A stretch of DNA of 64,000 bases, from contig JAHFKK010000001.1 of assembly GCA_023245335.1 (NCBI GenBank), forward strand, positions 1,000,019 to 1,064,018, given 5' to 3'. The DNA is from Candidatus Gottesmanbacteria bacterium. GTDB taxonomy: Bacteria > Patescibacteriota > Microgenomatia > UBA10105 > UBA927. How positions within the stretch are numbered: position 1 is the stretch's first letter; every line of letters starts with the position of its first letter. The position numbers and the translations under genes were made by a program. Below, piece after piece: positions 5,497-55,485 of this stretch. The notes beneath the pieces are model-generated. The model saw only the letters and a program-made list of their open reading frames with translations, made no database searches and was not told the DNA's origin.

Positions 5497-6132
5497 CTAC
5501 GATAAAGTGCGGAGTTTCATGCGAACCTCATGGACGAGTGTCACGCGTGCTTTGGCACTTTTTATAATATTAAGCTCATCCGTGACCACCTTCAATACGG
5601 GAATATCATTATCTTCGGCAAGCCATTTGTGATTGAGCATATCCAGAAGCTCCAAATATTTCATCGTGATGTGACGTTCATATCCTCGGCCGCGGGCGTC
5701 GATACGATGTGCAAGCTCGCGAATCGACGTCTCGAGGTAAATGATGAGATCCGGTTTGGGGAAATACGGTTCAAATGAACGATAAATTTTCTGGTACAAC
5801 CGCCACTCACTTTCGTCCATATTGCCTAGGACGTGCTGTGCCTTGGCATAGGAAAACGCATCCTCCTGGATCGGTGTATCCAGTACGACCGGCCGCACGA
5901 CAAGCATATTGCGCGTTTCCAAGATCTGCGAAATTTTTTCCATGAGAAAGAACGTCTGCGAATGAAATGCCCATCGTTTCATGTCCGTATAAAATCTCGG
6001 GAGAAACGCATTTTCCCCGAAATTTTCCTCGATGAGCCCGAATCGGAACTCTTTGGCGAGCAATCTCGAGACCGTGGTCTTCCCGCTTCCCATGGTTCCC
6101 ATGACGGTAAGATAGAATAATTTCTTCTTCAC
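5497..6132 (-). CDS. Deoxynucleoside kinase (dNK/dCK/dGK family)
   Basis: P-loop GTMGSGKTT, the ERS-like motif (here ETSIRE) and ~210 aa length are typical of deoxynucleoside kinases. Confidence 0.75.
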   Translation of the reverse strand: MKKKLFYLTVMGTMGSGKTTVSRLLAKEFRFGLIEENFGENAFLPRFYTDMKRWAFHSQTFFLMEKISQILETRNMLVVRPVVLDTPIQEDAFSYAKAQHVLGNMDESEWRLYQKIYRSFEPYFPKPDLIIYLETSIRELAHRIDARGRGYERHITMKYLELLDMLNHKWLAEDNDIPVLKVVTDELNIIKSAKARVTLVHEVRMKLRTLS

Positions 6133-7883: not shown

Positions 7884-7997
7884 CACTGGAATCAAAAATA
7901 GTCAGTTGCGTGACATGACGATTTGACACCACATGACCTAATGTATAGCATACGAGTTGCAAGGAGCACATTTACAGGGAGCGGAAACTGGAAATTT

Positions 7998-8165: not shown

Positions 8166-8314
8166 ATCATTCTTACAAATTTACAAACAAAGGGCAGCAC
8201 ATAGCTTGTTCTGTCTTTAACTACGTTTATTAGGTGTGTCACGTATCATGTATCAATGTGTCACGCTCACATTCCTGACACTTGAGACCTGACGCCCATG
8301 ACACTATATATCTT

Positions 8315-10117: not shown

Positions 10118-10392
10118 TACAGGCGTGGCAGTGTACACATTTTTCTGACTCTCCGCCAAACGCTGGCAATCCACGGGTGACGGTCGCGAGAGCATCCTGC
10201 GATGAGTCCTCACTTCAGAATGAGACGTAGCAACATGGAGTGGAAGCTATTATTTCATGAACGAATTGAGGCGAATCGCGGGACACACGACCGGCAGGCC
10301 CCGCTACCAGTGAACTTCGCATGGCGGATCGCAAAAAAATGCGTGCACTGCCAAAGCGCCATTCTAATTTATAAGGTGCTACAATATGTACC

Positions 10393-13259: not shown

Positions 13260-14789
13260 TTATAGTTCTTTGTTCGCCGCTGGGTCCTGATTATACTTCT
13301 CAGGTTTGCCGAGTTTGATGTAAAACTCCGCCCGCTGCAATTCGGTGCCGATATAGATAAGGTGACTTGGCAAAACGAGGTACTCACCGATATTCACCAT
13401 TTCAATGTAGAGTTCCATAGCGGTCTTTTCCCGCCATTCCTTGAGAAGCAGTCCGCCGTTTGGTGCATAGAGTTTGACGACAATTTCCCATTCGGTATCC
13501 GGGGGCTTCGTAGCGTATTTGGTAGGTCTTCCGACACTATTTTTGTCCGTTTGCTCGACCGAAACGACCACGTTCCCCCGCGGATCATCTTCAAACATCT
13601 GCCTGCTCGTGTAGCCTAACTCTTTGTCATAATTTTCTTTCAGGATCTTTTCGACCAACTCGTAATCATCGCTATAGATGTGCGCGCTATGGGTGATCAT
13701 GACGAACGCCCCCATGGCGACCCCCGACTCGTCGCAAATAAGCTTCTGTAATTTCCGAAGGCTAAATACGTTCCTGGGCCAGCCGTGCACCATATCCTGA
13801 CTCCGAAAATGCGTCGTCATAAAAAGTCTGCCGTCCTCTATGCTGCAGAGAATCTGTGTGAGGCACGGCGTGTCCCCTTTGTTGACGACCGACCAGTCTT
13901 CTTTAATTTTGGCGGTAAATGCAACCATCTTTTTCGAAAACGGTCGTGTTTTGATAAGGTCTATGATGTTTTGGATCTGATCGACGCCGTCATGATCGCG
14001 CAGTCTCTGCCCATACGTATATGCGATGCCGGGAATCTGTTTGGCGGAAAGTACCTGCGGATAATACGAAAGCAAATCTTTTTCCGAAAACGGGAAAAAG
14101 TGCGGCAGATATGGCTTGTCCGGATCCTCGTCATAGACGACCGCCATGACGTTCAGGAACTCTTTGAGTTCATTTTCCTGCGTGTAGCGGGTCGTTTTGT
14201 TGCGGCCGTACCGCATGATATTCATAAGGATTTTGAGCCATGCTTGCGCCGCGGTCTTCCCGTGTATGCGAACACCGATCTGTTCGCTGGGATACGTAAA
14301 CGGTTTGGGGCGACTGGTCGGAAACTTTTTGGGCTCGGTAAATGGCGCGGGCGGGACGGCCCCCAAATCACTGACTGTTTTCCTCAAAAGATCCGGAGAT
14401 TTGCCGCGGAGATTGATGACCTCTACGGATGTGCGGAAAAGGTCTATGGCATCCTTACCTATTTCCTTCTCTATCTGCCCGCCTTTCTCGTCCCCGATAA
14501 TGAAAAAATTCTCGTCGACGCCATTTGCCATAAGCGCCATAAGCGCCTGGCCGCTTCGGGAAAGGTCAGCGCCCCACAAAACGATCTTCCGTACATGCGG
14601 GTTGGCATAGACGTTTCTGATCATTGCCGAAATTCCCGCGGACGAATACAGGTTACCGATGGCGCAATAGTTCTCGTCTTTCAGAAGGTTCGCGACCACC
14701 TGCCGTTCCGTCCACATGATTGCAACCCCGACGGGATTCTTGGGGTCTTTGACATGCAACACTTGTCTATAGAGAATCGGCCAATCCAT
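13260..14789 (-). CDS. thyA: Thymidylate synthase (ThyA, archaeal-type PCL active site) with ~200-aa N-terminal extension domain
   Basis: The C-terminal ~300 aa carries ThyA folate/dUMP motifs including the catalytic Cys in TPCL (archaeal-type rather than PCH). It is adjacent to dcd. The N-terminal domain is unassigned. Confidence 0.65.
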   Translation of the reverse strand: MDWPILYRQVLHVKDPKNPVGVAIMWTERQVVANLLKDENYCAIGNLYSSAGISAMIRNVYANPHVRKIVLWGADLSRSGQALMALMANGVDENFFIIGDEKGGQIEKEIGKDAIDLFRTSVEVINLRGKSPDLLRKTVSDLGAVPPAPFTEPKKFPTSRPKPFTYPSEQIGVRIHGKTAAQAWLKILMNIMRYGRNKTTRYTQENELKEFLNVMAVVYDEDPDKPYLPHFFPFSEKDLLSYYPQVLSAKQIPGIAYTYGQRLRDHDGVDQIQNIIDLIKTRPFSKKMVAFTAKIKEDWSVVNKGDTPCLTQILCSIEDGRLFMTTHFRSQDMVHGWPRNVFSLRKLQKLICDESGVAMGAFVMITHSAHIYSDDYELVEKILKENYDKELGYTSRQMFEDDPRGNVVVSVEQTDKNSVGRPTKYATKPPDTEWEIVVKLYAPNGGLLLKEWREKTAMELYIEMVNIGEYLVLPSHLIYIGTELQRAEFYIKLGKPEKYNQDPAANKEL

Positions 14790-15438: not shown

Positions 15439-16296
15439 ATGATCCGGGGCATCATCACAGACATAGACGGCGTCATCGTCGGAGACAAAGTCGGATTCAA
15501 TTCTCCCTTCCCCCATCCTGACGTCCTCGCACGGATAAAGAAAATACATGACTCCGGCATACCGGTGACCCTTTGTACCGGCAAGCCGCATTATGCGGTC
15601 GGGCAAATCATCCGCGTCTGCGGACTCAATAATCCCCATATCACCGACGGCGGAGCCATCATCATAGATCCTATCACCAACACGATTGTCAAAAAACATG
15701 TTATGGATCCCTCGCTCGTTGCCGGACTCGTCGCGTCGTGTCTTAGGACTGACATGTATGTCGAGATCTATACGGAGGAGAGCTATATCATCCAAAAAAG
15801 CCAAGTCCGGGAAAATCTGACCCCGATACATGAGCACATATTGCAAACCGCGCCGGTCATAGTAGACGACTTGGTCGAGGAAGCCAAAAACCATGAGATC
15901 GTGAAAGTTATGCCGGTCGCAACGGATGAGGAAGACAAAAAACGACTGATTTCGATCTACGAGCCGTATAAGGATCAACTGACTCTCGCCTTTGGACTCC
16001 ACCCCATCGCAAACCCGCACCAGTTCGGTCTGATTACCGCCAAAGGCGTCTCAAAGAAACAATCCGCAATCGATGCGACCTCGGCTCTCCAAATTCCACT
16101 ACGTGATTATCTCGGAATTGGAGACAGCACCAGCGACTGGTCATTCATGGAGCTGTGCGGCTATGCGGCTACGATAGGAAACGGCAGCAGTGAACTCAAA
16201 AAACTGGTCGTAAGCAAAGAAGATCACGGATTTATCGCCGAACACTCCGTCGACGAAAACGGGGCGCTCACTATCCTTGATTACTTCGGACTGTGA
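15439..16296 (+). CDS. Cof-type HAD-IIB phosphatase
   Basis: MIRGIITDIDGV motif I. The later GIGDSTSDWSFMELCGYAATIGNG matches Cof-type motif III. The start was moved from 15385 to 15439 so that it begins at motif I and does not overlap dcd. Confidence 0.7.
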   Translation: MIRGIITDIDGVIVGDKVGFNSPFPHPDVLARIKKIHDSGIPVTLCTGKPHYAVGQIIRVCGLNNPHITDGGAIIIDPITNTIVKKHVMDPSLVAGLVASCLRTDMYVEIYTEESYIIQKSQVRENLTPIHEHILQTAPVIVDDLVEEAKNHEIVKVMPVATDEEDKKRLISIYEPYKDQLTLAFGLHPIANPHQFGLITAKGVSKKQSAIDATSALQIPLRDYLGIGDSTSDWSFMELCGYAATIGNGSSELKKLVVSKEDHGFIAEHSVDENGALTILDYFGL

Positions 16297-36883: not shown

Positions 36884-37561
36884 GACCGACTTATTATGGC
36901 AGATTTATCACGGATTACAATGGGATTCCCACAAAAAATCCCTGGCGGAGCCAGGGAAATTTGTTTAATCCACCCGATCTTCCTTTGCGCCTTACCTACT
37001 ATTCGTAGCGCGGCGCAAAGAGCGATCTTTAGCGGACTTCGGTGCCTTTAGCAACCGGATGGTGATAGGGTTCACCCAGAGCAATGAAAAGAAACCACAC
37101 CGCATAGAGCGGAAGCAATTATCTTTTCGTGCATAGGGTTAGGGATTTGAGAGAAAACTAGAAAAGATCATCCCGCTAAATGCGGAATATCTCGATCATG
37201 AACTAGTTTTCAAATAGAAAGGAGGTGATCCATCCCCAGCTTCGGCTAGGGATACCTTGTTACGACTTAGTCCCCATCGCTGAACTTACCTTCGACTCGT
37301 AAACGAATCTTCGGGTACTTTCAACTTTGGTGGCTTGACGGGCGGTGTGTACAAGACCCGAGAACGTATTCACCGCGGCCTGCTGATCCGCGATTACTAC
37401 CAATTCCAACTTCATGAGGTCGGGTTGCAGACCTCAATCTGAATTGAGGCGAAATTTTAGAGATTTGCTTGGCATTACTACCTTGCGTCCCGTTGTTATT
37501 CGCCATTGTAGGGTGTGTGTGGCCCAGGGCATAAGCGCCGTGCTGACTTGACGTCGTCCCC

Positions 37562-37690
37562 TCCTTCCTCCCCCTCTCTATAAACAGAAGTAAATAGTAA
37601 TGAGTAAATAGTAAGTAGATTAAAAACAAAAACGTTTTCTTTCTATTCACTACTCACTATTTACTATTCACTCTTCCGTCCATAGAGAGG
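37562..37690 (-). repeat. ~128-nt palindromic expansion replacing 16S helix 40, built from a TAAATAGTAA-type repeat unit
   Basis: It lies between GGAGACCGCC and GAGGAAGG, where E. coli has the 15-nt h40 hairpin. It forms the stem ccctctctat...atagagaggg with internal tandem repeats taaatagtaaNgag. Confidence 0.7.
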
Positions 37691-37760
37691 GGGCGGTCTC
37701 CGATGACACTTGTAACATCGGATAGGGGTTGCGCTCGTTGTCCCACTTAAGGGAACACCC

Positions 37761-37791
<31 letters not shown>

Positions 37792-37905
37792 GCTGTGCTA
37801 CCATCCTTGCGGATCCCCTCCCATTTCTGGATGGGTAAACGGTAGCATGTCAAACCCTGGTGAGGTCCTTCGCTTTGTCTCGAATTGAACCACACGCTCC
37901 ACTGG

Positions 37906-37937
<32 letters not shown>

Positions 37938-38326
37938 TAAGCTTGCGCTCGTATTCCCCAGGCGGTCTGCTTAACGCGTTAGCTTACGACAGACAGATTG
38001 CTCTGCCCATCTAGCAGACATGCGTTTAGGGCTAGGACTACGCAGGTCTCTAATCTGCTTCGCTCCCCTAGCTTTCGTGTCTCAGCGTCAGATATTGGCC
38101 AGAAAGGTGCCTTCGCCTTCGGTGTTCCTCATGATATCAACGCATTTCACTGCTTCACCATGAGTTCCCCTTTCCTCTCCAATCCTCGTAGTTTACCCAT
38201 CTCGTATCCAACGTCGAGGTTAAGCCTCGAGCTTTCAGATACGATGCGGTATACCGCCTACACGACACTTTACGCCCAGTAAATCCGGATAACGCTTGCA
38301 CCCTACGTATTACCGCGACTGCTGGC

Positions 38327-38560
38327 CTGTCACACATTGTGACAAACTTTGGACTATATCTTCATCCCGATTCGTATCGGGAGTCTCGCGTATAGTCTCT
38401 GAGGACTCTCTCCGCCAAAGGCGGAGGTTGCCTGCTGATTGTCTTGATACATGTCTGCTGTGTAGCAGAATACTTCGCGGTATATCAAGGTGTTCCAGCA
38501 TATAGCGAGATTTTCTTTCATTACATTACTGTATGACTACGCACCAAACCCCTTACCGGG
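38327..38560 (-). other. ~234-nt insertion in 16S rRNA at E. coli position ~514/515 (within the 515F primer site)
   Basis: Conserved flanks ...ACTACGTGAC | insert | GCCAGCAGTCGCGGTAATAC. The insert is hairpin-rich and has no ORF. Confidence 0.7.
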
Positions 38561-38987
38561 GTCACGTAGTTTGTAGGTGCTTATTCGCCAAAGCCTGTCG
38601 ACCTTGGCAAAAGAGGTTTACGATCCGAAAACCTTCATCCCTCACGCGGCGTCGCTCGGTCAGACTTTCGTCCATTGCCGAATATTCCCAGTTGCTGCCA
38701 TCCGTAGATGTATGGCCCGTGTCTCAGTGCCATTGTGGGGGGTCGTGCTCTCACACCCCCTATCCGTCGTCGCCTTGGTAGGCCTTTACCCCACCAACTA
38801 GCTGATAGATGCAGGGCCACTCCTCCTCCGCGCGGTTAAGCGCTTTGACCTTACGGCCTCATGCGGTATTACCCCGTCTTTCGACGAGCTATCCCACAGA
38901 AAAGGGCATGTTCCCTGCTTATACTCACCCGTCCGCCACTGTAAATTAAATCTTGCGACTCAAAAAACCGTTCGACTTGCATGCTTA

Positions 38988-39030
<43 letters not shown>

Positions 39031-39239
39031 AAAAAAATTGACGTAAGGAGCATTTGTTTGACCAAATTCTGCTTACATCAAAAAAAATCCTATCACCATT
39101 CGATTGTTAAAGTACTCTCCTGAGAGAAAACGTAGATTTTCTCCCAACGCGACCTAGTCAAGCTGGCAGGTGCTTTCGCGATTCCTGCCGTCGCTGCTTT
39201 TCCCGGTTAGTGAAAAGCGAGGTGATGCAAAGAGCGAAA

Positions 39240-40747: not shown

Positions 40748-42319
40748 ATGAAAAAAATACTGTTCTTTAGCCTCACCATTTTCCTAAGCGCCATCGCCGT
40801 ATGGTATGGCATCACCCATCACCGCGGCGTGACCTGCCCCCGATGCAACATTATCGTCATCACGGTAGACAGCATCCGCGCCGACCACCTACCCTGCTAC
40901 GGTTACGCACTAAATACCGCTCCTCATCTTTGTGCTTTTGCCGACGAAAATCTGCGCTTTACCCGCATGTTCGCAAATTCCACCTGGACACGTCCCAGTG
41001 AATTATCCATGCTGACATCTCTTTATCCGGTAAGTCATGGCATGACCGACCCTCTCCCTACTCATATGAATCCCAAAATTACGACACTGCCGCAAGTGTT
41101 GTATCGTAACGGTTATGAAACAACATTCGTGAGTAATGATCATCTGAACATGGCACTCGAGTTAGGCTTCGGACGGGGATTTCAGCACATCCAATTCACT
41201 CCGGCGATCATCAATGACGAAACGATGCACACGTGGTCGGACACGATAGACTCGATACAAACCGCGAACAAAAAACATAAACCGGCATTCGTTTTTATCC
41301 ACACGGACCATGTCCATGATTACATCGAAGAAATTCTACGGCCCCCGCAAAAATTCCCACTAGATCCGGCCTACCGGTCAAATATAAACTATCCAAAACA
41401 ATTTACCGAAGAAACCTGGAAACGTTCCATCGATTATCTTACCCACAGCATGGAGGTTGGTTGGGGAACCGACCCGATAAACGAGCAGGACGCATGGCGC
41501 ACACAACTGCGGCAGGCCAAAACATTGGACGAGGCACGTCAGGTATTTCTCCAGTTTCCAGAAACTCTCCAGTATGATCTCTATCTCAACATCGCACAGG
41601 ATGATCTCTATAAAAATAATTTTGCCGATTTCATGGAATTATGCAGACACCTCTATGATGAGAATATCCGCACCTTTGATCTATCATTTGAAAAACTCCT
41701 CAAGCGCATCGATGAGGACGGCATCAGCCGGAACACGATTGTCGTCGTAATCGGCGACCACGGACAGCTCTTGGGTGAATACGGGCTCATCGGACACATC
41801 CTCGGCATATCCAACGAGGAAATCCACGTTCCCTTTATTGCTCGGATTCCCGGACTATCATCACGTGTCATTGACGGATTGACACAGGGCATCGATCTCT
41901 ACCCCACGCTTCTGGATGTGGTGGGGATATCGCCGCCGAAGACCGTTGCCGGCATCAGTCTCCGTAAACTCTTGACGAATCAAAAAAACGCGCCGCAGAA
42001 TAAATACGTCATAAGCCAGACGCTGCTTCCGGATCACTTGGAAAGCATACAAACAGACCGTTGGCGACTTGTCGAAGGATTTTATCCCATTGGAATCTCA
42101 CGAAATCTCTACGACCTTGCACGCGATCCCAAACAACTCCACAGCGTATCCCCGACGACACAGCCCGTCGTTGATGCGCTCACCAAACTTTTAGAAACCA
42201 CCATACGCCGGCAACCCGTCTATCCGCCGGTGCAGTCGGCCTTCCCTGATTGGTTTGATGCGACTGTCCGAAAACAACGCATAGACAAAGGCTATTACTT
42301 TGACCCGCTTCATGGTTAA
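40748..42319 (+). CDS. Sulfatase-like (alkaline-phosphatase superfamily, PF00884-like) membrane-anchored protein, paralog 1; Thr-type LtaS/EptA-like candidate phosphotransferase
   Basis: N-terminal TM, then CPRCNIIVITVDSIRADHLPCYGY (metal-ligand Asp region). NSTWTRPSELSMLTSLYP sits where the sulfatase C/S-x-P-x-R motif would be. Confidence 0.75.
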   Translation: MKKILFFSLTIFLSAIAVWYGITHHRGVTCPRCNIIVITVDSIRADHLPCYGYALNTAPHLCAFADENLRFTRMFANSTWTRPSELSMLTSLYPVSHGMTDPLPTHMNPKITTLPQVLYRNGYETTFVSNDHLNMALELGFGRGFQHIQFTPAIINDETMHTWSDTIDSIQTANKKHKPAFVFIHTDHVHDYIEEILRPPQKFPLDPAYRSNINYPKQFTEETWKRSIDYLTHSMEVGWGTDPINEQDAWRTQLRQAKTLDEARQVFLQFPETLQYDLYLNIAQDDLYKNNFADFMELCRHLYDENIRTFDLSFEKLLKRIDEDGISRNTIVVVIGDHGQLLGEYGLIGHILGISNEEIHVPFIARIPGLSSRVIDGLTQGIDLYPTLLDVVGISPPKTVAGISLRKLLTNQKNAPQNKYVISQTLLPDHLESIQTDRWRLVEGFYPIGISRNLYDLARDPKQLHSVSPTTQPVVDALTKLLETTIRRQPVYPPVQSAFPDWFDATVRKQRIDKGYYFDPLHG

Positions 42320-43883
42320 ATCAGCCACTATCGGCAGTATCATATTCCTAAGTATATTCACGGTGGTTATACTTTGGCGCTCGCCTCTCAGAGCATCCCG
42401 CACCCCCGTTTGCTGGCACTGCAACGTCATCCTCATAACCGTAGATAGCCTGCGGGCGGACAGTCTCCCCTGTTATGGATACGCGAAAAATACCGCCCCG
42501 TTCATGTGTGAGTACGCAAAAAAGAATATACTATTCTCCCGAGCGTACGCACCTTCGTCCTGGACCCTGCCAAGCGAAATGTCGCTTTTCACCGGTTTAT
42601 ATCCCACCAACCACGGCATGGACACGGCGATGCAGGATATGCTGAACCCACAGATCACTACGCTCCCGATGGCTCTTCAAAAGAGCGGCTACGAAACGAC
42701 AGCGATCTCAAATGCGCAACCCAACATCGGTTTAGAACAAGGATTGGGACGCGGGTTTACGACAGTAAAAGCTACTCCAAATACTCCACATGATGCGATA
42801 CCCATGCTCCTTGAGGCAGTCGATACGATTCAAACTACAAACGACAGGCACAAGCCGGCATTTGTGTATTTTCATACCGATGGCGTACACAACTACAACA
42901 GCGGTTTCCCTGACGTGCCCTCGTCCTACCCGCTCGATCCTACTTATCATCCGCCGATGATGCCCAAAGACATGTACGCATTTACCCAAAATACGTGGGA
43001 CGTGATGCTTGATCATCTTCTATGGGTAACAAACGTGGATGGTAACAAAAATATTGACGACCCATATACGCGCAGCTATACGCACCTTATGAACGCAAAG
43101 ACACTTTCAGAGGCGAAAACGGTGTTTGACTCGCTGCCGTCCGCCGACCGGAATGCAATCAGCTGGGAAAGCGGTAATGATAAAGTACGGGAATTTCTCG
43201 GATCGGATTACGCGCCGCTTTCCCGGCACCTCTATGACGAAGCCGTCCGAAACGTCGATACCTATATGACACAGGTATTCACGCGTCTTGCCGAACGGAA
43301 TCTGGATAAAAATACGATCGTCATCATCACCTCAGAACACGGAGAATTCCTGGGAGAACGCGGACTTTTCGGTCACGGGACGCAATTTTTTGATCCCGAA
43401 ACCCATGTCCCGCTCATTATGCATGTACCCAACGTTTCGCAAAAGACGGTCACGGGACTCACATCCCTTCTTGACGTCTATGCTACCGTTATTGACCTCC
43501 TCGAACTCCGCGTACGGGCCCCCGCAACGAGTGTCAGCCAAGCAAAAACGCTCTTCCTCAAACGTCCTGCGTCTGCCCGCACGTTTGTCATCAGTGAATG
43601 GTTCAGCAACATGCACAATAAAAGCATACGCACGAACGAGTGGCACCTCTTAGAAACACGGAGCCCAAGCGGAGAAGCAATCCGCGAACTGTATCATATT
43701 CTGTTCGATCCGTCCGAAACGACCAATGTCGCCTCTACCAACGCTTCTGTCGTCGCGGCCCTTTCGAAACTCCTTCGCGACACACCGTATTCCGAACAAC
43801 TCTACGAACCAGTCTCCCGATCGTTTCCGGACTGGATCGACGAGGCACATCGCAAAAAACTCATAGAAACAGGGTATTATTAA
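42300..43883 (+). CDS. Sulfatase-like Thr-type alkaline-phosphatase superfamily protein, paralog 2
   Basis: CWHCNVILITVDSLRADSLPCYGY; SSWTLPSEMSLFTGLYP; C-terminal WIDEAHRKKLIETGYY. Confidence 0.75.
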   Translation: MTRFMVKSATIGSIIFLSIFTVVILWRSPLRASRTPVCWHCNVILITVDSLRADSLPCYGYAKNTAPFMCEYAKKNILFSRAYAPSSWTLPSEMSLFTGLYPTNHGMDTAMQDMLNPQITTLPMALQKSGYETTAISNAQPNIGLEQGLGRGFTTVKATPNTPHDAIPMLLEAVDTIQTTNDRHKPAFVYFHTDGVHNYNSGFPDVPSSYPLDPTYHPPMMPKDMYAFTQNTWDVMLDHLLWVTNVDGNKNIDDPYTRSYTHLMNAKTLSEAKTVFDSLPSADRNAISWESGNDKVREFLGSDYAPLSRHLYDEAVRNVDTYMTQVFTRLAERNLDKNTIVIITSEHGEFLGERGLFGHGTQFFDPETHVPLIMHVPNVSQKTVTGLTSLLDVYATVIDLLELRVRAPATSVSQAKTLFLKRPASARTFVISEWFSNMHNKSIRTNEWHLLETRSPSGEAIRELYHILFDPSETTNVASTNASVVAALSKLLRDTPYSEQLYEPVSRSFPDWIDEAHRKKLIETGYY

Positions 43884-43896
43884 AATAATAAAGACC

Positions 43897-45477
43897 ATGA
43901 AAATACACCGGGGGTTCATCGTCATTTGTATCATCCTTCTCATAGGATTCATCGTCTTCATGCGCGAAATGCTCCATCCTCTCTCGTATCGAAATTCCTC
44001 CGCCTTATGCTGGAAATGTAATGTGGTAATTATCGCGATCGACCTTCTACGCGCAGACAGCCTCCCCTGCTATGGGTACCGCTTCGATACCGCCCCGAAT
44101 TTGTGCGCGTACAGCAACAATAACATCCAGTTTTCCCGAGCGTATGCGACATCGTCATGGACGCAACCAAGCGAGGCTTCACTGTTTACCGGACTTTACC
44201 TGCACAGTCACGGCATGAGCGCATCCATGCGCACGATGCTCAATCCCCAGGTCGCGACGTTACCAAAAATTCTATATGCTCATGGCTACGAAACTATCGC
44301 CGTTTCTAACATACAGCCGAACGTCGGCTTGGAAATGGGCTTAGGTAAAGGTTTTACGTCGGTTCGGTTGATCCCCGATACTCCCAATGATTCTGTACGG
44401 GGACTGCTTGGGGCGATCGACGCCATACAAAATGCCAATAATCATCGACGGCCGGCATTCGTGTTTTACCATACGGATACGGTCAGGGATTATCTCAATG
44501 ACATATCCGACCCCCCATCTTCATTTTCATTTGATCCCGTCTACCACTCACCGGCGTTACCTAAAAATATCTACGAGTTCACTGAGCATACATGGACGGT
44601 AATGCGCGACCATCTGCTCTATATCATAAATGTCGATACGCTTCGCGACAAAGACCGTACGTACAGCAAACTGTACGACAAGCTCCAAAACGCAAAAACA
44701 CTTGCAGATGCACGGAAGGTATATGATGCATTACCGGCGTCAGAACAGGGCGAGATTATTTGGGAAAGCGGACAGGCGACCGTACGAACAACACTCGGTA
44801 ATCGCTACGCACCGTTTGTCCGACACCTCTACGATGATTCTGTACGTACCATAGACGACGCCCTGCGTCCGGCTATAGAAAAACTCTCACAGCGCGCGCT
44901 AAGTCGTCGCACCGTGGTGATCATAACGTCAGAACACGGTGAATATCTGGGGGAACGCGGCATCTTCGGCCACACTCAGCCGTTATTTGAACCGGAGACG
45001 CACGTTCCGCTTATTATGCATATCCCGAAAATATCTAAGGCCCGCGTAGAAACGCTCGCTTCACTCATTGATATCTACCACACCGTCTTCGATCTCATCG
45101 GCGTACGTACGGCCATTCCGAAAAGCAGCATTAGTCAAATACCGGCAATACTGCATGACACGCGCGAACCGGGACGAACGTTTGTCATAAGCGAATGGGC
45201 GCATACTCACCGTGACGAGAGTATCCGTACAAACGAGTGGCACTTCATGATGCGATGGACCTCTAATATCATGACGGAGGAGTTGTATGACCTATCCACC
45301 GATCCGACCGAAACCAAGAATGTTGCTTCTACTCATCCGAGCGTAGTGAAATCCTTGAAAGAAACGCTCTACCTGACGCTCGGCTTGGAACCCGTGTATA
45401 CACCTATCAATCTATCTTTTCCAAACTGGATTGACGAGGCTCATCGGAAAAAACTGATTGAGACTGGATACTACTAG
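43897..45477 (+). CDS. Sulfatase-like Thr-type alkaline-phosphatase superfamily protein, paralog 3
   Basis: CWKCNVVIIAIDLLRADSLPCYGY; SSWTQPSEASLFTGLY. The C-terminal 16 aa are identical to paralog 2. Confidence 0.75.
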   Translation: MKIHRGFIVICIILLIGFIVFMREMLHPLSYRNSSALCWKCNVVIIAIDLLRADSLPCYGYRFDTAPNLCAYSNNNIQFSRAYATSSWTQPSEASLFTGLYLHSHGMSASMRTMLNPQVATLPKILYAHGYETIAVSNIQPNVGLEMGLGKGFTSVRLIPDTPNDSVRGLLGAIDAIQNANNHRRPAFVFYHTDTVRDYLNDISDPPSSFSFDPVYHSPALPKNIYEFTEHTWTVMRDHLLYIINVDTLRDKDRTYSKLYDKLQNAKTLADARKVYDALPASEQGEIIWESGQATVRTTLGNRYAPFVRHLYDDSVRTIDDALRPAIEKLSQRALSRRTVVIITSEHGEYLGERGIFGHTQPLFEPETHVPLIMHIPKISKARVETLASLIDIYHTVFDLIGVRTAIPKSSISQIPAILHDTREPGRTFVISEWAHTHRDESIRTNEWHFMMRWTSNIMTEELYDLSTDPTETKNVASTHPSVVKSLKETLYLTLGLEPVYTPINLSFPNWIDEAHRKKLIETGYY

Positions 45478-47027
45478 CGGCGCACAGCGTTCGCGAAACT
45501 TTGCCACTCTGCGTCAAGCCTACTATTCTCCTTCATGAGGCGTTTTGCGGTGTCCAAATGATCGGCGAGAACGTTATTTGTTTCCATCGGATCCTGCGCT
45601 ACATTATATAACTCATACGGAACGAACCCTCCGTTTAACCATTTCATGAACATTTTCCAGCCATCATTCCGTACCGTTTTGACTTCATGATCTGTGTTGT
45701 ATCCGTTGGCAATAAGTAAACGATCCCTCAATCTATTGCCGACTGCACTATCTAAAAGACTGATCCCCTGGAAAAGGTAACGCCGCACCGGTAGCCCCAG
45801 CGCATCGATAATCGTTGGGGCGATATCTATGCCTTGCACCGGACCTTCCACAACGTGCTTGTCGTATCCCGGGATAGACACGATAAAGGGCACTTTTGTA
45901 TTGGAGTCATACAGCGTTATATGACCTAGCCTGCCATGTTCCATAAATTCCTCACCATGTTCTGACGTAATCACTACAATCGTATTTTTTTGTATCGCGG
46001 GGCTCTCAAGAAATGGAATAAGCACCCGGCCGATCCATGCATCCAATTCAAATATCTTCTGATCATAGAGCGCCTTGACGTATTCCACCTGACGGGGATC
46101 ACGAAGGTCTATTTTAGAAAAATAGTTATATTCGGTATAGTAAGAATCCAGTTCGTTCTCTTTGCTTTGCGCAAGTTGTTTTGCAGCCGAGAGCGTCGGC
46201 GCATTTTCCAGTTTCTCAAGAAAAGCCGTATCAACCGTCGCATTCGGTTTCCCCACAGTCTGGGACAATTGATCGACAAGGTACCGGTAAAAACCGGGAG
46301 AAAAATTGTCGTAAATTCCGTCCCACGTCAGCGGTATATTGGGGAAACGATCATTGGTAAACATCGGTGTGGGATTGTTGGGAATATACGGACCGTGCGC
46401 CTCATATGAATGAAGGTATAGAAATGTCTTATGCCCGTTTGTCACGCTTTTGAGGAACGCTGTCAGCGCCGCGCCGAGATCCTCATCCGGACCGTATCCG
46501 ACGGGGATAACACCAGTGACTCCTTGTTTATAGACGCCGTCGACGGGAAACGCCTGATCATGTTCGGGAACTCCGAAATATGTGGTGTATCCGTTTTGCC
46601 GCAATATTTCCGGCAACAGCGGCGCGGTCGCCGGCAACGTCTTCATTTCATCCTCAAGATTGAGGATCCGGTGATACTGCGGATACCAGGAGGTAAACAT
46701 CGACACATCGGCAGGAAGCGTCCATGACGCATTGCTATATGCGTTTTTAAAAAGAACCGATCTTCCTGCATACCTGCAGAGATTCGGGGCGGTGTTTCTC
46801 GCATATCCATAACAGGGCAGGTGGTTTGCGCTCACGGTATCGAGTGAGATCACGATGACATTACAATTTTTGCATACCGGTCCCCTCCTCTGAAAAAATC
46901 CGGCGAGACGGGAGAAATAAGGTGATACAATGAGAAAAAGAATGGCGATGAGACTACCGATGATAACCATCGCACGAATGTGTTTACGGTTTGGGAAACA
47001 ATCATCAATGAACGTACGGTAGCGCAT
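45474..47027 (-). CDS. Sulfatase-like Thr-type alkaline-phosphatase superfamily protein, paralog 4
   Basis: CKNCNVIVISLDTVSANHLPCYGY; ASWTLPADVSMFTSWYP. Convergent with paralog 3, overlapping it by 4 bp. Confidence 0.7.
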   Translation of the reverse strand: MRYRTFIDDCFPNRKHIRAMVIIGSLIAILFLIVSPYFSRLAGFFQRRGPVCKNCNVIVISLDTVSANHLPCYGYARNTAPNLCRYAGRSVLFKNAYSNASWTLPADVSMFTSWYPQYHRILNLEDEMKTLPATAPLLPEILRQNGYTTYFGVPEHDQAFPVDGVYKQGVTGVIPVGYGPDEDLGAALTAFLKSVTNGHKTFLYLHSYEAHGPYIPNNPTPMFTNDRFPNIPLTWDGIYDNFSPGFYRYLVDQLSQTVGKPNATVDTAFLEKLENAPTLSAAKQLAQSKENELDSYYTEYNYFSKIDLRDPRQVEYVKALYDQKIFELDAWIGRVLIPFLESPAIQKNTIVVITSEHGEEFMEHGRLGHITLYDSNTKVPFIVSIPGYDKHVVEGPVQGIDIAPTIIDALGLPVRRYLFQGISLLDSAVGNRLRDRLLIANGYNTDHEVKTVRNDGWKMFMKWLNGGFVPYELYNVAQDPMETNNVLADHLDTAKRLMKENSRLDAEWQSFANAVRR

Positions 47028-47056
47028 ACGAGCGGTATACCTCTAGAGTATACCAG

Positions 47057-47698
47057 ATGCCTATGAGACCGAATCGACATTTCTCGTACCATTTTTCCAC
47101 AAACTCGCTTCTGTATTCCTTCATGATTCTTATCGGTCTTTTTCTGTTCGCTTTTGCCATGTCGTATCACACGTGCGACAGACTCACCTGTATCTCTGTT
47201 TCCGGAAAACACACGTGGAAAGAGATAGACGCGTACGAACATACGGCAAAGACATATCGCGCGCTCTTTCAAGCAAATACCTATCGGGTCCGGGTAGAAA
47301 AAAATTCAGGACTCACGACCGACGATGCGGCGCTCCTTATGAAGGTAAACATGATGAAAATTTCCGGCCTGTTCGATGACGCCCGCTCACCATACCCGGG
47401 CGCATTGTCCGACCGGATTGTCTGCGATCATGCCTACAAACCGGACATCCGGCATATGACAAACGACTCGCAACTACCGATTACCTACTACACGGGGTGG
47501 CTCAATGACCGACTCCAATTCGGCTCATGTTTGGACTCGGAACTACCATACAAAAGCTATAACGCATATGCGTATTGCCCCCGGGAAAAAGCGTTATATC
47601 ATCTCGAGTGGATTATAAACCGCTCGAAGGACAATGAGGATGAATATATGAATTCGATGCGTACCATGCGGTGTCAAACACCATTCCCATCTCTTTAA
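47057..47698 (+). CDS. Membrane-anchored Cys-containing hypothetical protein
   Basis: 213 aa with an N-terminal TM (LLYSFMILIGLFLFAFAM) and a probable extracytoplasmic domain with 6 Cys. Confidence 0.4.
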   Translation: MPMRPNRHFSYHFSTNSLLYSFMILIGLFLFAFAMSYHTCDRLTCISVSGKHTWKEIDAYEHTAKTYRALFQANTYRVRVEKNSGLTTDDAALLMKVNMMKISGLFDDARSPYPGALSDRIVCDHAYKPDIRHMTNDSQLPITYYTGWLNDRLQFGSCLDSELPYKSYNAYAYCPREKALYHLEWIINRSKDNEDEYMNSMRTMRCQTPFPSL

Positions 47699-47713
47699 GT
47701 CCGGGGTAGTATG

Positions 47714-48334
47714 TTATGGAAGCGATCCTTCTGCCTGTTTCATGATTTCGTAAAGGATGATGCCGCAGCTGACCATCACGTTGAGGCTTATGTTAATCCC
47801 CCACATGGGCATCTCTACGATGAGATCTGCCATATCAAGCACCTCGGAAGAAACGCCTTTTGTTTCGTTCCCGACAACGATCGCCAAGGGCAACGCATAT
47901 CGTACATCGTAAAACCGTTTGCTTCTTTTATCCTGTTCGACCGCCACGACGGTAAGCTTCGGGTTCGTCGCCTTGAGCGTCAAAATAGCCGCGGCTGCGG
48001 TCGTCGCATATTCCCAGTTTACCCAACCGGTCGTGTTAATAGACGCTTTTTTTATTCTGGAGTTCGGGGGGGTCAGCGTCTCGCCGCAAAGGATGACTTT
48101 TTCAGCTGCAACCGCATCGGCAAGCCGGAAAATCGATCCCACATTATACGTATCCAATACGTTATCGACGATAATAATAATCGGATTTTTTGTAATTGCC
48201 CGTTGCACGTCAGCATCCGGTACGGTCGTACGAAGTTCTCGTGCATTCAGTTTGATCATGGACTGATTATACTCGGAAATACGTGATACTATACATACCA
48301 TACGGTCACCGTTCATATGAAATCTACTCAACAA
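47714..48334 (-). CDS. TrmH/SpoU-family RNA 2'-O-methyltransferase
   Basis: SPOUT motifs: IIIVDNVLDTYNVGSIFR, VVGNETKGVS, and MPMWGINISLNV (knot). Confidence 0.8.
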   Translation of the reverse strand: MLSRFHMNGDRMVCIVSRISEYNQSMIKLNARELRTTVPDADVQRAITKNPIIIIVDNVLDTYNVGSIFRLADAVAAEKVILCGETLTPPNSRIKKASINTTGWVNWEYATTAAAAILTLKATNPKLTVVAVEQDKRSKRFYDVRYALPLAIVVGNETKGVSSEVLDMADLIVEMPMWGINISLNVMVSCGIILYEIMKQAEGSLP

Positions 48335-49873
48335 CGTATACTCTTCCTCATAATTCTCTTCTCCGTTTTTGCCGTCGGTAAGACCGCATGGGACCGCTTT
48401 TCCGTACCCTGTTATCGCTGTAACGTTGTCGTGGTCGCCATTGATGACCTCAGGGCAGATGCCTTACCGTGTTTCGGCTACCGCCTCGATACGGCATCGA
48501 ACCTTTGCCAATATGCAGCAAAAAATATCGTGTTTTCTGCGGCCTACGCCAATGCCCCATCGACGAAACCCAGTGAAATGTCATTATTTACCAGCCTATA
48601 TCCGCCAAGTCACGGGCTGGTATCGAGTGCGTCGGGGAAACTCAATCCGCGGATAGTCACATTACCCCAGGCGTTCCAAAACGCAGGATATGAAACGACG
48701 TTCGTCGGCGAAGACACACCGGCACTTGCGCCTGAAGCGGGATTCGGACGCGGGTTTGACACCGTTCACATCACCGACAATATTCTCAACAGCACGACCT
48801 CTGCCATATGGAAGGATGCTTTCGATGGCATAAAAACCGCCAACGACAAACACAAACCCGCGTTTGTCTATCTCCACGCAGCTCATGTTCATGATTATGC
48901 AAATAATCTTTTTAAGTTTACTGAGCCCGGCAGCTTTTACCTGGATCCGACCTACCAATTCACGGACTATCCGAGTCAGCAGGAATTTACTCAACTCAAA
49001 TGGGACGCGATGATGGATTTTATCAACAACACCATCAACACGAGCTGGAATGCAGAAGTAGTCGCTCAATATAAAACGTGGCTCCGCCTCGCGGAAAACG
49101 CGCAAACGGTTGACGAGGCCAAGTCTGTATATCTCTCGTTGCCGGCCAATATGCAAAGACCCATATATCATTTGTTCGCCGCTACCTACGTGAATCTTTA
49201 CCAGTTCGACTCGCTCGTCTCGCTTGCGAGGCATAATTACGATCAGTCCATCTGGGCATTCGATAATAAATTTACGCCGCTCCTTGAGCGCTTGAGACAA
49301 AACGGTTTGACCGACAACACCGTCGTCGTCATCCTCGGAGACTACGGTGAACTATTGGGCGAACACAACGTCGTTGGCCACGCACTCGCCGGATTCTATG
49401 AGAAAGAGTTGCATGTCCCGATGATCTGGCACGTCCCCAATGCCGGCCACCGAACCGTGAGCTCTCTCGCACAACTTATAGACGTCTATCCCACCCTGGT
49501 AAACCTGGTCGGCATACCCAAGCCCGACACGCTTGCCGGCATAAACCTGAGAGGACAGATGTTCGGAGATCCCCGCGCACCAAAAAATACGTATACCATC
49601 GGGTATCTCATTCCCCACGACATTTCCTATGCCACGCAAATTCCGTTTACCAGTAACCAATACAGTATCCAAACTGACGCGTGGCGCCTCGTGGAGGTAC
49701 ATAATCCCGGAGGCACCTATCAGACGCTCTATGACCGAAAAACCGATCCGGGGGAGCTCCACAACATGATCGTCAAAGCTCCCGATGTCGCACAGACGCT
49801 CTCGTCTCTCCTTCACACAACCCTTGACCGCCAAATCATATATCCTCCGATTCTTCCTGCGATAAGCCCCTGA
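48317..49873 (+). CDS. Sulfatase-like Thr-type alkaline-phosphatase superfamily protein, paralog 5
   Basis: CYRCNVVVVAIDDLRADALPCFGY; NAPSTKPSEMSLFTSLYP. Confidence 0.7.
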   Translation: MKSTQQRILFLIILFSVFAVGKTAWDRFSVPCYRCNVVVVAIDDLRADALPCFGYRLDTASNLCQYAAKNIVFSAAYANAPSTKPSEMSLFTSLYPPSHGLVSSASGKLNPRIVTLPQAFQNAGYETTFVGEDTPALAPEAGFGRGFDTVHITDNILNSTTSAIWKDAFDGIKTANDKHKPAFVYLHAAHVHDYANNLFKFTEPGSFYLDPTYQFTDYPSQQEFTQLKWDAMMDFINNTINTSWNAEVVAQYKTWLRLAENAQTVDEAKSVYLSLPANMQRPIYHLFAATYVNLYQFDSLVSLARHNYDQSIWAFDNKFTPLLERLRQNGLTDNTVVVILGDYGELLGEHNVVGHALAGFYEKELHVPMIWHVPNAGHRTVSSLAQLIDVYPTLVNLVGIPKPDTLAGINLRGQMFGDPRAPKNTYTIGYLIPHDISYATQIPFTSNQYSIQTDAWRLVEVHNPGGTYQTLYDRKTDPGELHNMIVKAPDVAQTLSSLLHTTLDRQIIYPPILPAISP

Positions 49874-53038: not shown

Positions 53039-53332
53039 CTAGGGAGTAGGCGTTGCCGTCGAGGCGCTGACGGAAGCGGCTTTGGGTGTTGCCGTGGGTT
53101 TGACTGTCGCTTTCGGCGTCGGCTTCGCCGTCGTTCCCGTAGTCGGCGCAAGCGTATCAGGCGGTTCTACCGAAGTCGTCGGACTTATGAATATAACCCG
53201 TATGGCTCCTTCATCCGGCACGGGAGACACGACTTTGCGTCCGGAAATGACTATACCGATAATAACCACAACAAAAACAACGACCCCGACGATGATGGTG
53301 AGCGCAGCAATAGTCTTTCTCCGGTCATCCAT
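53039..53332 (-). CDS. Small membrane-anchored Pro/Thr-rich protein
   Basis: N-terminal TM IIVGVVVFVVVIIGIVI and C-terminal PTTGTTAKPTPKATVKPTATPKAASVSASTATPTP. Confidence 0.4.
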   Translation of the reverse strand: MDDRRKTIAALTIIVGVVVFVVVIIGIVISGRKVVSPVPDEGAIRVIFISPTTSVEPPDTLAPTTGTTAKPTPKATVKPTATPKAASVSASTATPTP

Positions 53333-53339
53333 ACTACGA

Positions 53340-53455
53340 TCAAGTATATCATACCCGATCGAATAAATAGTAAACAGTATATAGTAAATAGTAGGTAGAA
53401 ACTGTCTTTCTTTTCTTTGCTTCCTATTTTCTGTTCACTGTTTACTTATTTAATA
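53340..53455. repeat. Second copy of the AT-rich palindromic TAAATAGTAA-unit repeat element (intergenic)
   Basis: The stretch aataaatagtaaacagtatatagtaaatagtaggtag...ctgttcactgtttacttattt is related to the 16S h40 expansion. Confidence 0.55.
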
Positions 53456-55485
53456 TCCTCTTTTTTCCACGCAGCGAAGGTGCATTTGGGGTAAGTACTG
53501 CAGCCGTAAAATTTCTTGCCTCGCTTACTCCGCTTGACCACGATATCGCCCCCGCACCGGGGACACTTCATATCGACCTTCTCCCCGTACTGACGGGTAT
53601 ACGTACATTCGGGGAAATTTGTGCAGGCGACAAACTTGCCGAACCGCCCCATCCTAATCACCAGATCATGACCGCAATTGGGACACTTCTCATCGATTTT
53701 TTCTTCCGTGAGCTTCACCTTCTCTGCATCCTGGTAGGTCGTTTGTATAGCGGCAAAAAACGGGCCGTAAAATTGGGCTATCACGGGAACCCATTCTTTT
53801 TCTCCGTTTGCTATGGCATCCAGATCATCTTCCATATGAGCGGTAAACGGCAGATCGAGAATATTTGCAAAATATTGCACCAAAAAGTCCGTCACGGCGA
53901 ACCCGAGTTCCGTGGGCATCAGTTTCTTTTCTTCCCGGATTACATATTGCCGGTCAATAATGGTTGAGATTATCGGCGCATACGTTGACGGTCTGCCGAT
54001 ACCTTTTTCTTCAAGCGTTTTGACCAAAGACGCCTCCGTGTACCTCGGGGGAGGCGCTGTCTGATGCTGTGTCGGCACTGTACTCACCAGACGCACAGTG
54101 TCACCCTCGTGGACATCGGGAATCACGACGTCATCGGCTTCCCCGCCCGCCGGCGAGGCAGGCCGACCGATGATTTTGAGGTAGCCGTCGAATTTGATGA
54201 CCGATCCGGATGCCTCAAATACATAGCCGTTACTGCTAGTCACATCAATGGTCGTTGCATCAAACACTGCTTCTGCCGCCTGGCTCGCCATCGCCCGTTT
54301 CCAGATGAGATCATAAAGGCGATAATGATCACGGTTAAAATCCCCTTCCTCAACCGGAATGGTCATGAGTGCCCCTTGTGTCGGGCGGATCGCCTCGTGA
54401 GCTTCCTGCGCCACTTTGGATTTGGTCTTAAACCTACGAACGCTTGCGGGGACATACTCGCGGCCGTAGGTTTGGATAAGATATGCACGGGCCTCCGAGA
54501 TAAACTTTTCCGATAAATTCACACTGTCCGTCCGGTGATATGTGATATATCCTTCTTCATACAGTTTTTGCGCAATCTGCATTGTTTTTTTGGAAGAAAA
54601 ATACAAACGCCGTCCGGCGTCCTGCTGTAATGTGCTTGTGGTATAAGGCGCTAAAGGCTGCCGGTGCACTTCCTTTTTATCAACTGCGGAAACGGTGAAC
54701 GGCGGCTGCACATCGCCGATGACGGCTGAGGCGGCTATTGCATTCGGGATGGTCGTTGTCGTCGTCGTATATTTGCCGTCAAAAAGGTCAAACGTCAATG
54801 TCTTTTCGTACTTCACCCCATCCTTACGTACCAGATTGGCATGAATAAAGGCAGTATCAGTGCTCCCTCCTGCAAAGTCGCCTGCGATAGTCCAGTATTC
54901 CTGACTTAGGAATTTCTGGATTTCTCGCTCCCGTTCGACGATAAGTCTCACCGTCACTGATTGGACGCGGCCGGCCGAAAGCCAGCGTTTGGACAACTTT
55001 TTCCACAGAAGCGGCGACAATGTATAACCGACAAGCCGATCCAAAACTCTGCGCGCCTGTTGCGCATCAACGAGCTTCAAATCGATTGATCGCGGATTAT
55101 CCAAAGCGGCTTTAATTGCCGTCTCCGTAATTTCATGAAATGCGATGCGTTTGAATTTATCCGGACTGATATGTAACTTCTCATCCCCAAAAACCGCCGC
55201 GATATGCCATGCAATGGCTTCTCCTTCACGATCAGGATCCGTCGCAAGGATGATAGTGTCCGCTTTTTTTGCGAGCGCCTTGAGGGCCGTCACGTGCTTC
55301 GATTTATCCCGCGGGATGATATAGGTGGGAGCAAATCCGTGTTCGACATCTACGCCCAATGAAGACTTGGGCAAATCACGGACGTGCCCCATGGAAGCCT
55401 CGATAGTGTATGCCTCACCCAAAAAACGCGTCAACGTCCGCGCCTTGGTGGGTGACTCTACGATAATAAGTTTAATTTTTTTCAT
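53446..55485 (-). CDS. topA: DNA topoisomerase I
   Basis: TOPRIM N-terminus KLIIVESPTKA, the catalytic Tyr region, and C-terminal C4 zinc ribbons (CPNCGHD...CPRCGGD). Confidence 0.9.
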   Translation of the reverse strand: MKKIKLIIVESPTKARTLTRFLGEAYTIEASMGHVRDLPKSSLGVDVEHGFAPTYIIPRDKSKHVTALKALAKKADTIILATDPDREGEAIAWHIAAVFGDEKLHISPDKFKRIAFHEITETAIKAALDNPRSIDLKLVDAQQARRVLDRLVGYTLSPLLWKKLSKRWLSAGRVQSVTVRLIVEREREIQKFLSQEYWTIAGDFAGGSTDTAFIHANLVRKDGVKYEKTLTFDLFDGKYTTTTTTIPNAIAASAVIGDVQPPFTVSAVDKKEVHRQPLAPYTTSTLQQDAGRRLYFSSKKTMQIAQKLYEEGYITYHRTDSVNLSEKFISEARAYLIQTYGREYVPASVRRFKTKSKVAQEAHEAIRPTQGALMTIPVEEGDFNRDHYRLYDLIWKRAMASQAAEAVFDATTIDVTSSNGYVFEASGSVIKFDGYLKIIGRPASPAGGEADDVVIPDVHEGDTVRLVSTVPTQHQTAPPPRYTEASLVKTLEEKGIGRPSTYAPIISTIIDRQYVIREEKKLMPTELGFAVTDFLVQYFANILDLPFTAHMEDDLDAIANGEKEWVPVIAQFYGPFFAAIQTTYQDAEKVKLTEEKIDEKCPNCGHDLVIRMGRFGKFVACTNFPECTYTRQYGEKVDMKCPRCGGDIVVKRSKRGKKFYGCSTYPKCTFAAWKKEDIK

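Follow-up and report, generated by a model that had tools for sequence, protein, structure and literature searches.

What occupies helix 40 (h40) of the 16S rRNA gene in this genome, and does the same element occur elsewhere in it? The initial annotation of the 64,000-nt stretch of DNA analyzed here (the window) described a palindrome in place of h40 and a related one near topA. It proposed that both belong to a small mobile or propagating repeat family. We analyzed the two loci, compared them with the corresponding loci of close relatives, and surveyed h40 across bacteria.

Extended helix 40 in the 16S rRNA gene

The 16S rRNA gene in the window was 1819 nt long and aligned with the full Rfam model (Table 1); no 23S gene adjoined it. 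Without its two insertions, its length was ~1460 nt, which is the usual size of CPR 16S genes according to a survey (PMC9297842). In the Rfam SSU model, h40 is the hairpin at positions 1149–1172, with the consensus ACcgCCggcG-loop-gccGGagGAAGG. A sub-alignment of the 3′ part of the gene revealed that the 4-nt loop of this hairpin is replaced by ~113–123 nt in the window, with CCCCCUCUCUAU/AUAGAGAGGGGG as the base stem of the extension. Thus, the loop replacement described in the initial annotation was confirmed, and the boundaries given for it (37562–37690) differ from those in Table 1 by ~8 nt at the left end and ~3 nt at the right end. TRF assigned a 7-nt unit (TAAATAG/TGAATAG) to the arms instead of the 10–14-nt unit first reported. 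The RNA units in the 5′ arm are UGAAUAG, UAAAUAG, and UGAGUAG.

In the rRNA sense, the hairpin folded at −74.1 kcal/mol (z = −10.9), and none of 200 dinucleotide shuffles folded as well. As DNA, the arms were 81–83% complementary in an inverted-repeat comparison, and the stem is not the perfect one that it had been taken for. The rRNA-sense strand formed 52 pairs including 9 G-U pairs, and the opposite strand formed 42 pairs including 1 G-U pair, with energies in this pair count of −63.4 and −41.6 kcal/mol, respectively. The advantage of the sense strand in stability was 20–22 kcal/mol. This strand comparison indicates that the stem is near-perfect solely as rRNA-sense RNA, and the nine G-U pairs indicate that pairing is maintained at the RNA level. 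The G-U asymmetry shows a long residence of the hairpin under RNA-level selection. It also shows that the hairpin must fold in the rRNA transcript, which is compatible with either an excised intervening sequence (IVS) or a retained expansion segment. These results bear on the proposal that a MITE- or REP/REPIN-like mobile DNA palindrome was moved by a transposase acting in trans and that one copy in h40 was domesticated as an expansion segment. Against it, the DNA arms are only ~82% complementary, their differences are of the kind tolerated as G-U in rRNA, and they are made up of tandem repeats, whereas MITEs have defined termini. The h40 flanks form an inverted stem and contain no direct repeat.

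Introns are frequent in CPR 16S genes, and a group I intron occupies another site of this gene, which might suggest that the h40 insert is itself a self-splicing intron; an assembly artefact was considered as well. Both were effectively refuted. No Rfam intron model matched positions 37570–37693, RF00028 matching 38327–38573 alone, and a hairpin as simple as this insert leaves no space for a catalytic core. Over 12,590 nt, h40 insert included, the window and the independent ENA assembly L178 have the same sequence, indicating that the insert is not an assembly artefact. Homologous extensions were also present in relatives, as described below.

Several other features of the window were recorded. 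GC skew was negative in nearly all 1-kb bins from 1 to 64000, regardless of gene orientation. A cluster of five ~520-aa paralogues of the sulfatase family lies between the 16S gene and topA (40748–49873); three were confirmed or implied by Pfam and relatives, and the others were assigned from their size and from the gene order in L175 and L183. A glmS ribozyme (7990–8155, plus strand) is located upstream of glmS (8282–10117, plus strand; SIS and GATase domains), and an ORF at 13260–14789 (minus strand) encodes an unusual fusion of thymidylate-synthase, MtrA-like, and pterin-binding DUF4346 domains.

Table 1. Features of the two hairpins, their surroundings, and the heptamer arrays beyond the window end (64000+n, continued in contig L189)
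Feature	Position	Strand	Basis
16S rRNA gene	37218..39036	-	Rfam RF00177, 1297 bits, full model 1–1533
Extended helix 40, 124-nt hairpin in place of the normal 4-nt loop	37570..37693	-	Rfam alignment and fold
Heptamer array, 3′ arm of the RNA hairpin; plus strand AGTAAAT x4.3 (TAAATAG-type)	37589..37618	-	TRF period 7, score 39; inverted-repeat arms
Apical part, short A/U stem and loop without heptamers	37619..37642	-	MFE structure
Heptamer array, 5′ arm of the RNA hairpin; plus strand CTATTCA x4.9	37643..37676	-	TRF period 7, score 47
Group I intron interrupting the 16S gene in its 530-loop region, separate from the h40 element	38327..38573	-	Rfam RF00028, 73.5 bits
Small conserved ORF downstream of element B	53039..53332	-	ORF list; orthologues after topA in L175, L176, and L185
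Element B, second heptamer hairpin	53356..53452	-	Folding; alignment to the empty sites of L175 and L185
Element B array, TAAATAG x4.3	53364..53393	+	TRF period 7; inverted repeat, partner arm 53424–53446
topA (DNA topoisomerase I)	53446..55485	-	Pfam Topoisom_bac, 1.3e-123
Inverted arrays of a different heptamer (CTCAATA … ATTGAGT/ATTGGAT) in the Wzy_C ORF	64000+5703..5789 (L189 2587–2673)	inverted pair	TRF
Heptamer array in the Wzy_C/TPR membrane-protein ORF, CTACTCACTACTCACTATTCACT	64000+5915..5937 (L189 2439–2461)	coding strand, in frame	TRF
Heptamer array in the fmt ORF, ACTATTTACTACTCACTATTCGCTATTCACT	64000+7960..7990 (L189 386–416)	coding strand, in frame	TRF

A second hairpin downstream of topA

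The second hairpin with a related unit, here termed element B (the h40 element being element A), was found as annotated, with a TRF array in one arm. Its location relative to topA had to be revised: it had been placed upstream of the gene, but it lies directly downstream of it and overlaps its stop codon. The last codons and stop codon of topA fall within the outer stem of element B, and the element occupies the spacer between this stop codon and a small conserved ORF. The hairpin spans 53364–53452, and the segment that is extra relative to relatives spans ~53356–53445 (~90 nt). The two strands of element B folded at −32.7 and −31.5 kcal/mol (z = −5.7 and −4.2, respectively), and no strand-specific RNA signature was present. 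No terminator-like or promoter-like site was found at element B. Its assignment as a terminator or known RNA was rejected, the sole Rfam match being at chance level (E = 0.76).

The topA sites of the relatives differed from that of the window. In L175 (TopA 81% identical), ~20 nt separate the stop codon from the next ORF, and in L185 the spacer is 40 nt long and contains no arrays; element B is missing from both. L176 (TopA 78% identical) has a different hairpin of ~75 nt at this site, composed of GCTTTACAA units. The empty sites in L175 and L185 and the other hairpin in L176 indicate that element B is an insertion/deletion polymorphism. In addition, L176 carries a perfect (AAAGTCA)x4.7 array at 10296–10328, within the coding region of its topA.

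Such a polymorphism counts in favor of a mobile palindrome of the MITE or REP type, as does the location of intergenic copies directly after stop codons, which is also that of REPs. However, hallmarks of such elements were not found. Comparison of filled and empty sites gave at most a 3-nt GTA repeat at the topA site as a target-site duplication. When the 39 window ORFs were compared with Pfam, none had a domain of a transposase, of IS200/IS605, or of a RAYT, and the 64 kb contained only two inverted copies.

Relationship between the two hairpins and the heptamer family

Local alignment of elements A and B gave a score of 48, which exceeded those of all 1000 mononucleotide shuffles (18.5 ± 3.1, maximum 38). 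The possibility, raised with the initial annotation, that shuffled sequences would score comparably was thereby dismissed. The best score elsewhere in the window was 26, and the best scores in 365 kb of other CPR DNA, including ~40 heptamer hairpins, were 31 (element A) and 34 (element B). When element B was compared with 40 h40 inserts, that of its own genome ranked first (48; next 32). Among cross-genome pairs of h40 inserts, a score of 48 was reached by 13 of 780, all between related inserts. These comparisons support the claimed relatedness of the two loci, but the likeness amounts to little more than a shared heptamer array. Because the match corresponds to approximately one such array, the evidence is the occurrence of the same unit in the same genome and not a long shared sequence.

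The alternative that the two hairpins are independent products of local slippage, which resemble each other by coincidence or compositional bias and form no family, draws on this reduction of the likeness to one heptamer. Heptamer arrays are a common slippage product (PMC4692102), and a metagenome scan for TAAATAGTAANNAGTANATAGTA found (TAAATAG)n arrays in at least 120 unrelated contigs. Unrelated metagenome contigs picked for (TAAATAG)3 scored 50–59 against the two loci. None of the metagenome matches listed for TAAATAGTAANNAGTANATAGTA was located within a 16S gene, and none was from a close relative. The occurrence of these arrays in unrelated organisms indicates that heptamer-array hairpins are widespread outside CPR. 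In metagenome contigs L092, L102, L130, L146, and L123/L125/L156, (TAAATAG)n often abuts arrays of other heptamers (GGGTTAC, ATTCACG, and CTACTAC) and long hairpins. On the other side, the ranking of element B against the 40 inserts and the restriction of the 13 high-scoring pairs to related inserts speak against coincidence, as does the abundance of the unit in this genome.

Contig L189, which is 99.97% identical to the window over their overlap, adds 8,375 nt past the window end. Its two ORF-borne arrays, in the fmt and Wzy_C genes, consist of the units of the h40 arms (CTATTCA, CTACTCA, and CTATTTA). A search for (CTAYTYA)x3 with up to 2 mismatches found 4 loci in 72.4 kb of this genome; in other CPR DNA (365 kb), it found 2. 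Four loci per 72 kb compare with ~0.4 expected, an approximately 10-fold enrichment over other CPR DNA; the four are two inverted copies and two single arrays in the 72 kb covered. Over the stretch covered, this genome has a genome-specific heptameric tandem-repeat family (STRR-like), in which 7-nt arrays are present and the unit is enriched. The sharing of an enriched unit by several loci would also be expected of a MITE- or REP-like element. Element B is probably a separate insertion made of the same genome-specific heptamer as the h40 hairpin.

The Wzy_C ORF was inspected further. An in-frame insertion resembling a Rickettsia palindromic element was considered in this gene and rejected: 13 homologues are equal in length there, indicating that the Wzy_C arrays are not insertions, a point in favor of local slippage and coincidence. 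The inverted arrays of a different heptamer in the same ORF code for a repeated WILS-IVY-WILS transmembrane stretch. They can also form a hairpin; the surrounding 140 nt folded at −33 kcal/mol. In L189, 1.3 kb at 3462–4788 contained neither a called gene nor an Rfam match.

Helix 40 in close relatives

TopA and the HAD hydrolase encoded near the 16S gene had their best matches in Candidatus Gottesmanbacteria/Patescibacteria, and copies with 100% identity to both are encoded on a contig of 1,218,111 bp. Three relatives, L183, L184 (= GTDB UBA5942), and L185, were syntenic with the window (PAP2–16S–HAD–YfhO) and had complete 16S genes, each with a group I intron at the identical site (8319–8581, 8233–8574, and 8259–8505, respectively). 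The L176 contig breaks off inside the intron (15530–16220), which contains an ORF of the LAGLIDADG type (…YLAGFTDGEGCFYIGFS…).

The base stem of the h40 extension, CCCCCUCUC, was common to the window, L183, L184, and L185, and the distal parts were unrelated. The h40 loop is replaced by 130 nt with AACAATT x4 in L183, by 136 nt with AACGAAAAC units in L184, and by 44 nt without arrays in L185. The short L185 stem, GUACAGAA/UUCUGUGU, is homologous to GGACGGAAG/CUUCUGUUU of the window, which indicates that the heptamer module was placed on top of an older, shorter extension. The occurrence of this base stem in syntenic relatives shows h40 to be an extension site of long standing and not a fresh insertion target. 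This conservation of the base argues against the arrival of a mobile DNA palindrome in h40, and so does the result that no copy was found outside the rRNA gene in the 20-kb loci of the relatives.

L183 and L184 encode the same HAD protein, and their 16S cores had 0–1 differences per 50–100 columns. Between the two genes, h40, the tip of h44, and one stem of the intron are completely different. These near-identical cores with swapped tips indicate that helix tips are replaced far faster than point substitutions accumulate. The L184 intron has an extra hairpin of ~110 nt composed of AACAATT units, which resembles the L183 h40 hairpin including its loop (score 54). The presence of one heptamer module in the h40 of one relative and in the intron of the other is a further point in favor of a mobile element. 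The possibility that L184 is an assembly chimera was rejected, as L184 and the independent UBA5942 assembly have the same sequence across h40 and the remaining 16S, with the exception of a masked run of N.

The near-identical segment of L183 and L184 extends from ~250 nt upstream of the 16S gene to the locus end over at least 7 kb (16S–HAD–tRNA–YfhO). It is 98.9% identical with the swapped hairpins included, and the syntenic genes upstream of it are too diverged for blastn. This pattern suggests a recent recombination or transfer of the rRNA-containing segment, as a possible history of these loci. In L180, the closest relative with data (HAD 78% identical), the contig starts exactly 20 nt 3′ of h40, as expected if the h40 hairpin breaks short-read assembly there.

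Survey of helix 40 extensions across bacteria

One genome per species (185,579 species; GTDB) was scanned for AGACNGCC followed, after 76–136 nt, by GGAAGGNGGGGAYGACGTCAA. The scan yielded 54 loci, 38 of which were genuine h40 extensions, all being long hairpins. The remaining 16 were excluded as false, having AGACNGCC further upstream in 16S genes of Acidobacteria and others, or runs of N. The 38 extensions were almost all from CPR (Moranbacteria, Paceibacterota, Gottesmanbacteria, Liptonbacteria, Harrisonbacteria, Saccharibacteria, and others), and they constitute a phylogenetically non-independent set with many Moranbacteria.

When the window was included, the strongest autocorrelation of the arms was at lag 7 in 24/39, lag 14 in 2/39, and lag 8 in 4/39 extensions. 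The mean periodicity z was 3.46 at lag 7, 1.99 at lag 14, and ~0 at other lags. Each lineage had its own repeat unit. For the comparison of strands, two duplicate loci were dropped and L183 and L185 were added, giving a set of 39. The rRNA-sense strand was more stable in 33 of these, by a mean of −6.5 kcal/mol (Wilcoxon p = 1.6e-5), and G-U pairs were about twice as frequent in the sense strand (168/1587) as in the antisense strand (81/1477). In many h40 extensions (L001, L006, L020, L023, L036, and other loci of Moranbacteria and Paceibacterota), small G+C-rich side hairpins, such as GCGCACUUCGUGCGC and UUCGCUUGCGAA, flank the heptamer stem on both sides, which suggests that a multi-way junction is conserved at its base.

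At 4 of the 38 loci, the same 8-kb stretch contained the module twice, compared with ~1% in the null (cross-locus null score, 24 ± 4.6). The second copy was the h44 tip of the same 16S in L008 (score 103), h6 of the same 16S in L025 (score 53), the spacer directly after a 425-aa ORF in L028 (score 64), and a site 6 kb upstream of the 16S gene in L044 (score 47). In L008, the non-repetitive parts of the twin copies were identical as well. The twin copies in h40 and h44 of this gene can be cited for a MITE- or REP-like element, and the frequency of same-locus sharing is evidence against coincidence. With this, and with the enrichment of the unit around the window, we regard independent slippage without any family as quite unlikely. 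The initial proposal of a mobile or propagating family thus stands as far as a repeat family is concerned, given the excess of loci in this genome, the polymorphism at the topA site, and the recurrence of modules in other CPR genomes.

Comparison with known systems

We consider the h40 element to be, with a probability of roughly 0.6, a lineage-specific extension of the h40 tip in a Gottesmanbacteria-like CPR (Patescibacteria) bacterium, in which heptamers of a genome-specific family form an rRNA hairpin of the IVS or expansion type. It belongs to the short, ORF-less, non-intron insertions known to be common in CPR rRNA genes. In two surveys, 42–48% of CPR 16S genes have insertions of at least 100 nt, and short insertions without an intron signature or ORF are treated as uncharacterized, possibly RNase III-type IVSs (PMC9297842; PMC11270868). 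The h40 element is exactly of the class in those reports (Tsurumaki et al. 2022, 2024, and Brown et al. 2015 as cited there): it is <200 nt long, has no group I/II signature and no ORF, and lies in a CPR 16S gene that also contains a group I intron. The accessible text of these surveys contains no description of a hairpin/heptamer anatomy, of G-U asymmetry, of sharing with other helix tips and non-rRNA loci, or of turnover between near-identical genes.

Bacterial rRNA IVSs are known from helices 25 and 45 of the 23S rRNA of Salmonella, Yersinia, Campylobacter, Leptospira, and Coxiella, with rare cases in 16S rRNA. They are likewise A/U-rich stem-loops of ~100–200 nt that replace the loop of a peripheral helix (PMC4990558; PMC11270868). 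The likeness extends to the lack of coding capacity, to a sporadic distribution and wholesale replacement among close relatives, and to a long duplex that is a natural substrate of RNase III (same sources). The h40 element is a helix-loop replacement in an rRNA gene, forms an extended stem-loop, and is replaced among relatives, with distal parts of 44–136 nt. It differs from classical IVSs in its location in 16S helix 40, in its tandem-heptamer arms, and in the occurrence of its unit outside rRNA.

Heptameric repeats are over-represented in bacteria, form genome-specific families, and are sometimes inverted; polymerase slippage is given as their origin, and close relatives differ strongly in their length and sequence (PMC4692102). 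The STRR sequences of Calothrix/Nostoc and the GGGAATC repeats of Xanthomonas likewise have a 7-nt unit, one favored per genome, at many loci and sometimes as inverted stem-loops (PMC4692102). STRR-type repeats are intergenic, whereas the arrays in the window are arms of an rRNA helix under an RNA-level pairing constraint.

REP/REPIN sequences are defined by a high copy number of a conserved core and by an associated RAYT gene. Together with MITEs, they resemble the present hairpins as small dispersed palindromes, often located directly after stop codons (Bertels and Rainey 2011, PMC3116915). The hairpins differ from them in having a low copy number in the 72 kb covered and tandem-array arms in place of a conserved REP core; no target-site duplication was found, and no RAYT or transposase gene was found among the 39 window ORFs. 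We therefore consider a transposase-moved MITE or REP palindrome, domesticated in h40, to be unlikely, and the MITE- or REP-like character assigned in the initial annotation is not established.

The preferred reading as an h40-tip extension leaves room for comparison with rRNA expansion segments. In eukaryotes and Asgard archaea, these are variable, repeat-rich helix tips that grow out from the surface of the ribosome, with newer insertions at the tips of older stems. To our knowledge, h40 is not a classical expansion site. The resemblance lies in the short stem of L185, which appears to be the base of the longer one in the window. Expansion segments are part of mature rRNA, in which the h40 element may or may not be retained.

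Proposed mechanism

Under the preferred reading, arrays would arise and change in length through replication slippage, and recombination or another copy mechanism would transfer or exchange whole distal modules among hairpin tips. Slippage accounts for the growth of arrays but not for the non-repeat sequence that twin modules share, as in L008, or for a switch of unit from one 16S gene to a near-identical one, and a step of copying or exchange is thus required. Selection on the rRNA precursor would keep the h40 arms complementary, and the tip of h40 would tolerate extension presumably because it is peripheral. The ~50-bp duplex may be cut by RNase III, leaving the 16S rRNA in two pieces as with a classical IVS, or it may remain on the ribosome as an expansion segment; we give the two fates about even odds. 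No RNase III (rnc) gene was seen when the 39 ORFs of the window, which covers ~5% of the genome, were compared with Pfam.

A bolder version is possible, although we regard it as doubtful. The inverted-heptamer hairpin might be a hitherto undescribed kind of self-propagating cassette of CPR that colonizes, and is exchanged between, RNA helix tips (16S h6, h40, and h44 and group I intron stems) and the 3′ ends of genes, with turnover faster than point mutation. If this were true, these loci would offer a live view of the birth of rRNA expansion segments and IVSs, and the ribosome surface would be a hypervariable trait.

Implications

Short non-intron insertions in CPR rRNA genes have been recorded in the literature but left uncharacterized. 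The analysis of h40 gives them a shared anatomy, namely inverted heptamer arrays on an older base stem. The extensions carry a signature of RNA-level selection in the G-U pairs on the rRNA strand, and they behave as replaceable modules, with further occurrences at the tips of other helices, in the stem of an intron, and downstream of genes. In practical terms, h40 hairpins break short-read assemblies inside the 16S gene and lengthen amplicons. If the pattern holds genome-wide, it would link genome-specific heptamer repeats with rRNA intervening and expansion segments, two unexplained phenomena, and would provide a testable route for the origin of rRNA expansions by slippage and copying between hairpin tips.
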